This document shows positions 5,032 to 47,130 of a stretch of 64,000 bases of DNA, in pieces. The translations under genes and the position numbers were made by a program. The stretch lies in the NCBI RefSeq assembly GCF_000027125.1, contig NC_017626.1; one strand, written 5' to 3'. The notes beneath the pieces were generated by a model, which saw only the letters and a list, made by a program, of their open reading frames with translations, ran no database searches and had not been told where the DNA came from. Source of the stretch: Escherichia coli 042. GTDB lineage: Bacteria > Pseudomonadota > Gammaproteobacteria > Enterobacterales > Enterobacteriaceae. Within the stretch, counting starts at the first letter, position 1, and the number at the start of each line of letters is the position of its first letter.

Positions 5032-5061
5032 TTGCATCACCCGCCAATGCGTGGCTTAATG
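5032..5061 (+). promoter_or_regulatory. cspA: cspA promoter (-35 TTGCAT / -10 CTTAAT) with AT-rich UP element upstream
   Basis: ttgcatcacccgccaatgcgtggcttaat precedes a ~160 nt leader before the cspA ATG at 5228; matches the recalled cspA promoter architecture. Confidence 0.7.
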
Positions 5062-5227
5062 CACATCAACGGTTTGACGTACAGACCATTAAAGCAGTGT
5101 AGTAAGGCAAGTCCCTTCAAGAGTTATCGTTGATACCCCTCGTAGTGCACATTCCTTTAACGCTTCAAAATCTGTAAAGCACGCCATATCGCCGAAAGGC
5201 ACACTTAATTATTAAAGGTAATACACT

Positions 5228-14547: not shown

Positions 14548-14912
14548 ATTGAACTCCATAATCAGGTAATGCCGCGGGTGATGGATGATGTCGTAATATT
14601 GGGCACTCCCTTTCAGTTGCTCAATTATGTTATTTCACACTGCTATTGAGATAATTCACAAGTGTGCGCTCGCTCGCAAAATAAAATGGAATGATGAAAC
14701 TGGGTAATTCCTCGAAGAGAAAAATGCAATAAGTACAATTGCGCAACAAAAGTAAGATCTCTGTCATAAATCAAGAAATAAACCAAAAATCGTAATCGAA
14801 AGATAAAAATCTGTAATTGTTTTCCCCTGTTTAGTTGCTAAAAATTGGTTACGTTTATCGCGGTGATTGTTACTTATTAAAGCTGTCCTCTACCTACAGA
14901 AGGCCCTACACC
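14548..14912. promoter_or_regulatory. Divergent xylAB / xylFGH(R) promoter region (expected XylR and CRP sites)
   Basis: 365 bp AT-rich intergenic region between divergent xylA and xylF; individual sites not resolved by eye. Confidence 0.6.
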
Positions 14913-44553: not shown

Positions 44554-45849
44554 CTACAGCGGGTAATGTGCGACGTACACGGCTTGCTGGTCATTAATTT
44601 TCTTCTCTTGCGCAAACCCTTCTTTAACAATCGTCCGTAAATCAGCTCGAGCCGTATTATCAGAGACGCCCAGGCTCGCGCTAATTTCAGCAACTGTGTA
44701 CTCTTTCCCCGGATTGGCGAGCATCACATTCAGGAGCGTTACCTGGCGAGGATTCAAGCGTTTAAGCACGCCAGAGCTAAACAGCACACTATCGAATTTT
44801 GCGCTTCGTTGCATAATTTCATCAATATGCTGCTGCCAGTTTTGCAAAGCACGTTTAATGACACCCGCCTGATAATCAAGGAAATAAGTCAGATCCATAC
44901 CATCTGATTCAGTGTACTGGCAGCTGGCGGCATATTTGACCGGTGCAGCATGAAGCAAACGGCTGATGGAAATATATTTAAAGACATCGTAGCCCGATTT
45001 CAGCATATACCAGTAAAACAGTGCCCGACTGGTGCGCCCGTTGCCATCGCGAAATGGATGTTCATGGGCCAGCATAAAATGCAGAATGCAGGCACGGATT
45101 AACGGGTGAATATACCCTTCATGGCTGTTTAACCACTGGCAAACTTTTTCCAGCCGTTCCAGCAACAATGCCGCAGCGGGCGGTTGGTGCACAATATTGC
45201 CGTCATAGTCGGCGATCACAACATCATCTGTTTCACGAAATTCTCCCGGACGATATTTCGCGTCATTGATTCCACCCATACCAATGGCATGTAACTGGCG
45301 AATAAGCGCAGTCGTCAGCGGTTCTGCGAGTAAGTGCGGAATTTCCGCCATCAGCCGGGCATTTCCCGCAATCATATGCTCGTCTTCAGTGCGTGGCGAC
45401 CGCCCTGTTTCCAGCATTTTTCTCGCCACCAGCGTTGTAGTATTCGCACCTTCCAGCTGGGAGCTGGTGATCGGCTCTTCCAGGCGTAACTGGCTTAACT
45501 CGGCTCCGGCCCCGCGTAACCGTTCAGTCTGATCTTTCAGCGCCAGCGCGGTAGCACGTTTGTCGACAAGCTCGCACGCTTCTGCAATCACCGGGGTAAT
45601 GTTGAATCCGGCCTGTTCACCCGCTTCATTGCAATAATTAATTCGTTGGATCGCCGCGTTGCGCGCCAGACGGGTAAGCGTCCACGCCACATCGACGTTT
45701 TCTCCTTTTTTGATGCGGTACTGCAACTCATCAAAAGGTAGATAACGTCCTTTTTCATCGGTAACCCGGTTAAAGCGCAGGTGGGCCTGGAGTTCCTCAC
45801 CCGATAAGTGTGATAAAGGAATAAGTCCGGGAGGTGATTTGATAGCCAT
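44554..45849 (-). CDS. Fic-family protein (class II, internal inhibitory helix) with C-terminal wHTH-like domain
   Basis: 431 aa; canonical Fic active-site motif [12 protein letters not shown]; upstream inhibitory-type motif SSQLEG ([S/T]xxxE[G/N]); C-terminal segment [39 protein letters not shown] resembles a winged HTH. Not in the recalled K-12 aldB-yiaY gene order. Confidence 0.85.
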
Positions 45850-45854
45850 GTGCT

Positions 45855-45935
45855 TATCTCAAAAAAGCGCAATATTGAGATAGTGTATAGCAGGAAAGAG
45901 AAACTATCTCAAAAATCGCAAATTTTGAGATAGTT
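45855..45935. promoter_or_regulatory. Two palindromic operator-like sites upstream of the Fic gene
   Basis: TATCTCAA-N12-TTGAGATA (45855-45882) and perfect 13-bp arms AACTATCTCAAAA-N8-TTTTGAGATAGTT (45902-45935), immediately upstream of the Fic start codon. Confidence 0.5.
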
Positions 45936-45940
45936 TAAAA

Positions 45941-45965
45941 AATGGCTGACAATTAGACAGCCATT
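45941..45965 (-). terminator. yiaY rho-independent terminator
   Basis: Minus-strand reading gives hairpin atggctg-tctaattgt-cagccat followed by TTTTTT. Confidence 0.65.
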
Positions 45966-45978
45966 GTGGGAATGATGA

Positions 45979-47130
45979 TTACATCGCCGCGCGATAAATC
46001 GCCATAATTTCTTCGTGAGTTGCCTGGATCGGGTTAGTAAAGCCGCAGGCATCTTTCAGGGCATTGGTTGCCAGCACTGGAATATCTTCTTCTTTCACGT
46101 TCAGGTCACGCAGGCCTGCCGGGATATTCACTTTCTTCGCCAGTTCACGGATGGCATTGATGCACGCTTCTGCGCCTTCCGCGTCATTTTTGCCTGTCAC
46201 GTTAACGCCCATGGCAGCAGCACAGTCACGCAGACGCGCAGCAGCGACTTTGCTGTTGAACACCTGAACGTGTGGCAGCAGAACGGCGTTACATACACCG
46301 TGCGGCAGATTGTAGAAACCGCCCAGCTGGTGCGCCATCGCATGAACATAACCCAGAGAAGCGTTGTTGAATGCCATGCCAGCGAGGAACTGGGCATAAG
46401 CCATTGCTTCACGCGCTTTAGCATTGCTGCCATCTTCAACGGCTAACGGCAGATTTTCGGCAATCATGGTCACCGCTTTCAGTGCGCAAGCGTCAGTGAT
46501 CGGCGTGGCGGCAATAGAAACATACGCTTCGATAGCGTGCGTTAAGGCATCCATACCCGTTGCGGCGGTCAGTGACTTCGGCATACCGACCATCAGAGAT
46601 GAGTCATTGACAGAAAGCAACGGAGTTACATGTTTATCAACAATCGCCATTTTGATATGACGCGCTTCGTCAGTGATGATGCAGAAACGGGTCATTTCAG
46701 AGGCCGTACCCGCCGTGGTATTGATGGCGATCATCGGCAGCTGCGGTTTTGCAGAGCGGTCAACGCCTTCGTAATCGCGAATATCGCCACCATTGGCTGC
46801 CACCAGCGCAATACCTTTTGCGCAGTCGTGTGGAGAACCACCGCCTAAGGAAATCACGCTATCGCAATTATTTTCTTTAAGTAATTTCAAACCTGCAGCG
46901 ACGTTTTCCGTGGTGGGGTTAGGTTGGGTGCCATCATAAATAACGCTAAAAATATTGCGTTCTTCCAGTGCTTTTTGCACATCACCCGCCATACCCAATT
47001 TCGTTAACATATTGTCAGTGACAATTAAGGTACGGGTAAATCCATAATCTGCCATCATATTCATTGCATCATTCAATGAATCAGCACCAATAACATTCAC
47101 GGAAGGAATAAAAAAGGTTGAAGCTGCCAT
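45979..47130 (-). CDS. yiaY: Iron-containing alcohol dehydrogenase YiaY
   Basis: 383 aa [19 protein letters not shown]...; Fe-ADH family. Confidence 0.93.

Follow-up and report, generated by a model that had tools for sequence, protein, structure and literature searches.

The Fic protein CccR of Yersinia pseudotuberculosis, a class II Fic protein with a C-terminal HTH domain, represses its own promoter through the inverted repeat AGATAATCAT-N26-ATGATAATCT, as established by lacZ fusions, EMSA, footprinting, ITC, and mutants of the dimer interface (PMC9755527). The HTH domain of CccR binds near the -35 and -10 elements, a dimer is required, the half-sites are widely spaced, and the two DNA-binding helices lie 70 Angstrom apart (PMC9755527). 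Dimeric SoFic from Shewanella oneidensis, a member of an anti-phage defence family, binds the 100 bp immediately preceding its own ORF, with the motif left undefined (bioRxiv 10.64898/2026.07.09.737422). CbFic2 from Coxiella burnetii (PDB 8CIL) binds dsDNA with a DeoR-like winged HTH (wHTH), and DNA drives its dimerisation through this domain with a change in activity (PMC10628234). In the Phd/Doc and FicT/FicA systems, a palindromic operator at the promoter of a Fido-fold toxin keeps the level of this toxin low, but the DNA-binding domain is carried there by a separate antitoxin. Autorepression by a Fic-HTH fusion is already known from CccR, and since it has been published the locus described here adds no new principle. 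Sequence comparison adds three things, namely a distinct wHTH-Fic branch that is widespread and carries an additional N-terminal domain, a predicted operator of defined design (tandem 8-N12-8) that is merged with the putative core promoter, and a family-wide co-variation between the recognition helix and the predicted operator.

The window, a stretch of 64,000 nucleotides from Escherichia coli 042 (NC_017626.1), contains a Fic gene on the minus strand (44554..45849, ATG at 45847-45849) in the local order aldB - Fic - yiaY - selB, and the RefSeq annotation agrees, with a 'Fic family protein' of 431 aa placed between aldB and yiaY. The protein is assigned to class II because the catalytic and inhibitory motifs are found in one chain. 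The catalytic motif, of the HPFx[D/E]GN[G/K]R type, is located at residues 264-275 and is invariant in 49 homologues, while the inhibitory motif, S129-SQL-E133-G134 ([S/T]xxxE[G/N]), lies N-terminal to the Fic core and is invariant in the homologue alignments. Pfam places the Fic domain (PF02661) at residues 177-281 (8.6e-19) and gives weak HTH matches of DeoR, IclR, and MarR type at residues 361-414. In the AlphaFold2 (AF2) model (mean pLDDT 88, pTM 0.84), the only low-confidence segment is the inhibitory-motif stretch at residues 131-137. The C-terminus (44569..44769, minus strand) is modelled with confidence as a canonical wHTH, with helices at residues 367-378 and 386-393, a recognition helix at 397-409, and a beta wing at 413-417 / 423-427, in agreement with the weak HTH matches and with the profile alignment. 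Residues 1 to ~95 (45565-45849) are modelled as an additional N-terminal domain built from three helices plus a beta hairpin (pLDDT >90). Its GRY core is near-invariant, with D31, G34, R35, and Y36 invariant across 13 aligned homologues, and the aligned parts of CbFic2, SoFic, and CccR have no such domain.

The best Foldseek matches, nearly full length, are CbFic2 (8CIL), SoFic (3ZCN), Dde_2494 (4RGL), and CccR (7XUX). CbFic2 is the best match by both profile and Foldseek through the wHTH, and the homologue profile aligns it to residues 120-427, through the C-terminal domain, although its DNA binding is reported to be largely sequence-unspecific, it modifies host histone H3, and no operator at its own promoter is described. 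SoFic has the same domain order, Fic followed by wHTH; the homologue profile aligns SoFic residues 39-352 to residues 97-424, and the PADLOC SoFic model matches residues 96-427 (2.3e-43). However, with 43 bits against a cut-off of 550 in the NCBIfam equivalog model, the protein would not count as an equivalog of SoFic, and SoFic is without the N-terminal domain. Moreover, the Sofic gene of E. coli H397 is reported to be adjoined by the small gene AS1, whereas no such downstream partner is evident at the window locus, where the only small frame overlaps the 3' end of fic. CccR resembles the protein as a class II Fic with an N-terminal inhibitory motif, a C-terminal HTH, and a fold match over the full length (7XUX). 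On the other hand, the identity to CccR is only ~17-18% in a sequence alignment that covers the Fic core only, and CccR is 380 aa long without the ~95-residue N-terminal extension. The CccR operator is a single 10-N26-10 repeat (AGATAATCAT) as opposed to two 8-N12-8 sites 50 bp apart at the window locus, and CccR is reported as a T6SS-secreted effector. Unlike Phd/Doc and FicT/FicA, the protein combines inhibition (the alpha-inh motif) and the DNA-binding domain in one polypeptide and has no conserved partner gene. An all-against-all comparison of flanking ORFs across loci yielded no conserved antitoxin-like partner ORF, and a type II toxin-antitoxin operon (class I FicT/FicA or Doc/Phd) was rejected as there is no adjacent antitoxin ORF family across loci.

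An earlier sequence-only reading of this stretch had pointed out two palindromic sites with a common half-site upstream of the Fic gene, and direct reading of the sequence confirms both. The proximal site, here termed O_P as a predicted operator (45855..45882, minus strand), reads TATCTCAA-AAAAGCGCAATA-TTGAGATA in full, and the distal site, O_D (45905..45932, minus strand), reads TATCTCAA-AAATCGCAAATT-TTGAGATA, both having the geometry 8-N12-8 with the arms TATCTCAA-N12-TTGAGATA. The two sites are direct repeats of each other at 79%, with 50 bp from start to start, and five bases (45850-45854) lie between O_P and the Fic ATG. The second palindrome had been described as perfect with 13-bp arms; its symmetry is indeed perfect, but the pairing runs over 45901-45914 / 45923-45936, giving arms of 14 bp, one base more per arm. 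A gapped pattern search for TATCTCAA-N6-16-TTGAGATA returned two matches in 64 kb, O_P and O_D, and any match was absent from all of 100 dinucleotide-preserving shuffles of the window, which excludes a chance origin of the two sites within the window. The half-site TATCTCAA occurs eight times in the window against 1.5 expected, with four of the eight belonging to O_P and O_D, and isolated copies at 14646, 33959, 37299, and 50762 are each without a partner arm.

The two sites coincide with putative elements of a promoter that reads toward the Fic gene. On the minus strand, the promoter-proximal arm of O_D supplies a candidate -35 hexamer, TTGAGA (45907..45912), which is followed after a 17-bp gap by a candidate extended -10 element, TGC-TATACA (45884..45892), that ends 1 bp before O_P. 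The predicted start of Fic transcription, near 45877 (about +/-2), falls within the upstream arm of O_P. By this layout, O_P would span the region from the transcription start to 5 bp before the ATG, and O_D would overlap the -35 position. The sole Shine-Dalgarno-like bases ahead of the ATG appear to be GAGA in the downstream arm of O_P (45857..45860, minus strand; 8 nt spacing), and in several homologues the ATG is too near the arm for GAGA-type bases to serve as a Shine-Dalgarno sequence. A sigma-70 promoter scan did not list the minus-strand Fic promoter because TATACA is without the usual final T. The sole match reported by the scan is a promoter-like TTGAGA-17-GACAAT on the plus strand (45925-45953), aimed at the 3' end of yiaY (antisense), which is probably a by-product of the palindrome arm.

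The yiaY gene ends with its stop codon at 45979, and beyond it lies an intrinsic terminator (45936..45965, minus strand) with a stem at 45941-45948 / 45958-45965 and then a T run on the minus strand, so that the hairpin placed at 45941-45965 by the sequence-only reading is present. That reading had also assigned Fic to a separate transcription unit, which is supported in silico by the terminator hairpin and T run before the sites and by the promoter-like arrangement between and within them. The predicted terminator separates yiaY from the Fic unit, which is flanked in the window by this terminator and the aldB promoter region. The terminator is also kept in Fic-less K-12, with altered stem bases.

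The sites were compared across 80 loci encoding relatives of the protein (one genome per species), together with a few loci obtained by exact protein look-up, and recur upstream of homologues down to ~38% protein identity. Near carriers include E. albertii, Escherichia sp. ESNIH1, Salmonella, and Pantoea, and carriers at 38-45% identity include Alteromonadales, Marinomonas, Pseudoalteromonas, Alcanivorax, several Pseudomonas, and two Leptolyngbya cyanobacteria; Aeromonas homologues also carry the upstream pattern. The pattern in homologues is [T/C][A/G]TCTCAA-N12-TTGAGA[T/C][A/G], with a half-site consensus of T-A-T-C-T-C-A-A (80 half-sites) in which TCTCAA is nearly invariant, although the conservation of positions 5-8 arises partly by construction, as sites were detected only if each arm had a TCAA core that was close to perfect. 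At its edges the 12-bp spacer is rich in A and T, and it is otherwise variable. The looser pattern C[T/G]CAA-N10-12-TTG[A/C]G occurs at 2.84 per kb in the 220 bp upstream compared with 0.031 per kb in the other 390 kb, a difference of ~90-fold. Within Escherichia (eight promoters), none of the 32 arm columns vary, compared with 15 of the 57 other columns (Fisher p=0.0008). An unanchored count of palindromes by spacer length was discarded in favor of arm-anchored searches, as it gave a smeared even-spacer series that results from the AT-rich inner flanks pairing as well.

The arrangement of the sites is conserved in addition to their sequence. The 21 two-site loci come from several orders and all have their sites 49-52 bp apart, and a second upstream site is also present in Salmonella and Pantoea. 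In the same 21 loci, the distal arm TTGAGA lies 16-18 bp ahead of a -10-like hexamer, and this hexamer ends 0-3 bp before the proximal site; the rigid 50-bp spacing of the sites would be explained by this promoter geometry. In 28 of 32 loci, the end of the proximal site falls in the range from 3 bp inside to 8 bp ahead of the start codon (-3 to +8), and in 12 of 29 loci TGnT[AG] precedes the proximal site by 9-11 bp, compared with 13% of random 19-mers. The distal site is evidently dispensable, since the homologues of Photorhabdus, Klebsiella, and RIT691 have the proximal site alone. The proposal that the palindromes are operators for a symmetric dimer gains in silico support from these comparisons, as the half-site, the 12-bp spacer length, the position, and the 49-52 bp spacing are kept in distant homologues while the spacer sequence drifts.

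About half of the 72 loci scanned are without the strict core pattern, and these belong either to a Pseudomonas clade whose proximal palindrome is rearranged or to some distant lineages. In the Pseudomonas fluorescens group (L018, L020, L023, L026, L029, L030, L042, and others), the rearranged design is located ~130 bp before the ATG and comprises a distal site, TATTTCAG-N12-TTGAGNCN, and a longer nested palindrome, ACTCAA..CTCNG-TTTCA-CGAG..TTGAGACA, as the proximal element. The proximal palindrome has ~19 bp between its CTCAA and TTGAG cores and does not fit 8-N12-8, and TGCTGTACT overlaps its left arm. A distant relative in a Verrucomicrobiales MAG (L084), which has another recognition helix, is preceded ~120 bp before the ATG by two palindromes with an unrelated half-site, TTGCTACTAATTT…AAATTAGTAGCAA and TTGTTACTAATTT…AAATTAGTAACAA.

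Across these loci, no gene other than Fic constantly accompanies the sites. The all-against-all comparison identified no flanking ORF family common across loci save for synteny in one Pseudomonas clade, and the neighbors of Fic are aldB and yiaY in E. coli and AbiEi/GST in Pantoea. The Salmonella homologue (L100) is located in an island between a pertactin-type autotransporter gene and AcaB/DUF3158 genes, and the Klebsiella homologue (L102/L103) adjoins a DUF927 gene, which suggests that integrative elements carry these copies, whereas the E. coli gene has a fixed place between aldB and yiaY.

The half-site sequence and the spacer length change with the recognition-helix subfamily. Proteins with the recognition helix S[D/Y]NTA are preceded by [A/G]TCTCAA arms with N12 (32 sites), and AAC[T/G]CAA arms predominate before those with [I/V]xxNTAR, where the spacer is N10 at 11 of the 12 sites and N11 at the other. 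Distal and proximal half-sites are also closer to each other within a locus than between loci (6.90 vs 6.58 of 8 positions, permutation p=0.0017), which is a modest effect; one locus has CATCTCAA in all four arms, while ATTTCAA-type arms predominate in other loci. Permutation statistics on arm symmetry are biased upward because site detection required partial symmetry, and were not relied on. The sequence-only reading had named the wHTH of the Fic protein itself as the plausible binder, and this attribution is supported in silico by the exclusive linkage to the gene, the co-variation of helix and half-site, the modelled wHTH, and the precedents of CccR and SoFic.

Among the viral matches and the listed metagenome matches, exact sites form tandem pairs only beside Fic genes or their apparent remnants and otherwise look random. 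Metagenome matches amount to at least 120 stretches, and among those listed, 11 have two exact sites and all look Fic-derived, with the Fic motif downstream in nine of the 11. One of these stretches (L211) is the E. coli promoter itself and ends before the Fic motif. Two others among the listed matches (L146 and L215) have a degenerate second site at 50-51 bp, and the remaining 101 single sites listed have random second-site scores, 40 of them being inside long open frames. The last of the 11 (L118, 2835-2911) has a tandem pair without an adjacent start codon, and L215 (around 5053-5130) has a tandem operator pair without a recognisable Fic start, followed by a terminator-like hairpin; both pairs may be remnants of deleted Fic genes. 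In viral contigs, the exact 8-N12-8 pattern occurs in 15 stretches, none of which is beside a Fic motif or a second site, and these matches are treated as chance. There is no evidence of further regulon members among the window, the near-identical E. coli sequences, the viral matches, and the listed metagenome matches, and a literature search for the half-site strings found no relevant report.

It is quite likely, judging from the sequences, that the two palindromes are tandem operators of the promoter of the Fic gene and mediate negative autoregulation by a Fic dimer. A Fic homodimer would set one wHTH on each 8-bp arm. The arm centers are 20 bp apart, which is about 68 Angstrom and two helical turns, and by analogy this separation would suit a CccR-like dimer. 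Both the dimer and the helix-to-helix distance are taken over from CccR, and the extra ~95-residue N-terminal domain could alter the assembly. A dimer on O_D would cover the -35 position, and a dimer on O_P would cover the transcription start and the short leader. Accumulating Fic would then shut off its own transcription, and the potentially toxic AMP-transferase would be held at a low set level. The inverted repeats lie over the inferred -35 and transcription-start positions, as in CccR-type autoregulators.

Binding by Fic could instead serve mainly as an allosteric platform, which would control dimerisation and the balance of AMPylase and deAMPylase activity, or could activate rather than repress the promoter. 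In CbFic2, the top Foldseek and profile match, dsDNA of at least 20 bp induces dimerisation through the HTH and changes activity (PMC10628234), AMPylation by SoFic depends on dimerisation (bioRxiv 10.64898/2026.07.09.737422), and the 28-bp site at the window locus is long enough for such an effect. However, the position over the -35 element, transcription start, and leader is classic repression geometry, the sites are highly sequence-specific whereas DNA binding by CbFic2 is described as largely unspecific, and CccR, the sole relative with reporter tests, represses 3.3-fold (PMC9755527). We consider either alternative unlikely as the main role of the sites. The two roles are not mutually exclusive, and the tandem operators may also act as a specific DNA platform that dimerises Fic and holds it inactive or deAMPylating, an additional function suggested by analogy with the non-specific effect of dsDNA on CbFic2 that is still improbable, if slightly less so.

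The palindromes could also act as hairpins in RNA or single-stranded DNA, with the distal one forming a second terminator or an insulator after yiaY and the proximal one a leader hairpin that masks the ribosome-binding region. The predicted folding energies are -15.9 kcal/mol (z -6.0) for the distal hairpin and -7.3 kcal/mol (z -2.9) for the proximal hairpin, the distal palindrome is picked up on the minus strand by a scan for terminators, and the proximal arm holds the only Shine-Dalgarno-like bases. Nevertheless, this explanation is very unlikely, as homologues conserve the arm sequence and not pairing alone, arm mismatches are without strand bias (12 G.T vs 10 A.C), and other loci have no T run after the distal site. 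With transcription beginning near 45877 as predicted, the upstream arm of O_P would not be transcribed, and what is left of the leader has no better folding energy than shuffled sequences (z -0.7). Nor would an RNA hairpin need a half-site common to both sites, or one that co-varies with a protein helix. Rfam gives a noise-level match only and no family, and both an intrinsic terminator and a structured leader RNA were rejected as descriptions of the sites.

The distribution of the Fic gene in E. coli bears on a further explanation, in which the sites either serve another host transcription factor as operators or are left over, as terminal inverted repeats or an attachment site, from a mobile element that brought in the Fic gene. 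The gene and its promoter are found at the same chromosomal place in 1572-1575 of 5426 complete E. coli genomes (~29%), including O157:H7, Nissle 1917, NC101, and UPEC strains, and O_P is identical in 1437 of 1575 E. coli genomes. In K-12, which is without Fic, the aldB-yiaY spacer (L001, 2013-2176) holds the last fic codons (CTCTGTAA) fused to GAGATAGTT, the outer part of the distal site, followed by the yiaY terminator; the junction is a 3-bp GAG microhomology between the end of fic and O_D. A second Fic-less lineage (L002, 2379-2578) retains the whole distal palindrome. The counterparts of the deletion junctions in the window are 44554-44562 and 45905-45936. Because K-12 keeps the fic end and part of O_D and another lineage keeps the full distal palindrome, the Fic-negative strains are read from these sequences as deletion derivatives, the fic CDS apparently having been lost at least twice, with each junction in an operator half-site.

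The presence of the gene in only a part of the species, its location in islands in Salmonella and Klebsiella, and the location of the deletion junctions in GAGATA half-sites would fit operators of another host factor or mobile-element relics, but this explanation too is very improbable. The same sites accompany the gene as far as cyanobacteria without any other common gene, so no host-specific factor fits, and instead of flanking the gene the two sites are placed together on one side of it, in register with the promoter. The K-12 junction has only the 3-bp microhomology, which is typical of illegitimate deletion. Further, BLAST finds the 34-bp proximal site once in each of 1575 E. coli genomes and on no plasmid, so that it is not a dispersed repeat. 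Among the 5426 E. coli genomes searched with this 34-bp operator, none gave a near-identical extra copy, while degenerate sites are beyond the reach of BLAST. REP/BIME-like repeats and IS ends are dismissed, as the site is present in a single copy per genome (1575 E. coli) and both sites are upstream of the gene.

The Fic gene of the window is present in nearly a third of complete E. coli genomes without a described function, and defence-system HMMs would label it SoFic-like. Negative autoregulation through the tandem sites would give it a concrete control circuit, consisting of an operator motif, a promoter layout, and a predicted recognition helix, and the predicted circuit is conserved across a large and phylogenetically wide wHTH-Fic branch. 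The natural specificity variants, [A/G]TCTCAA-N12 and AAC[T/G]CAA-N10, are usable to dissect how the wHTH reads DNA. If the sites were additionally a platform for the Fic protein, the promoter would be both the expression set-point and the off-switch of a single-gene toxin or defence module, and displacing or outnumbering the sites, for example by phage-induced DNA damage, a change in supercoiling, or a burst of synthesis, would release AMPylase activity. In that case, the operator arms fused with the -35 element and the ribosome-binding region would represent a compact and portable control cassette.
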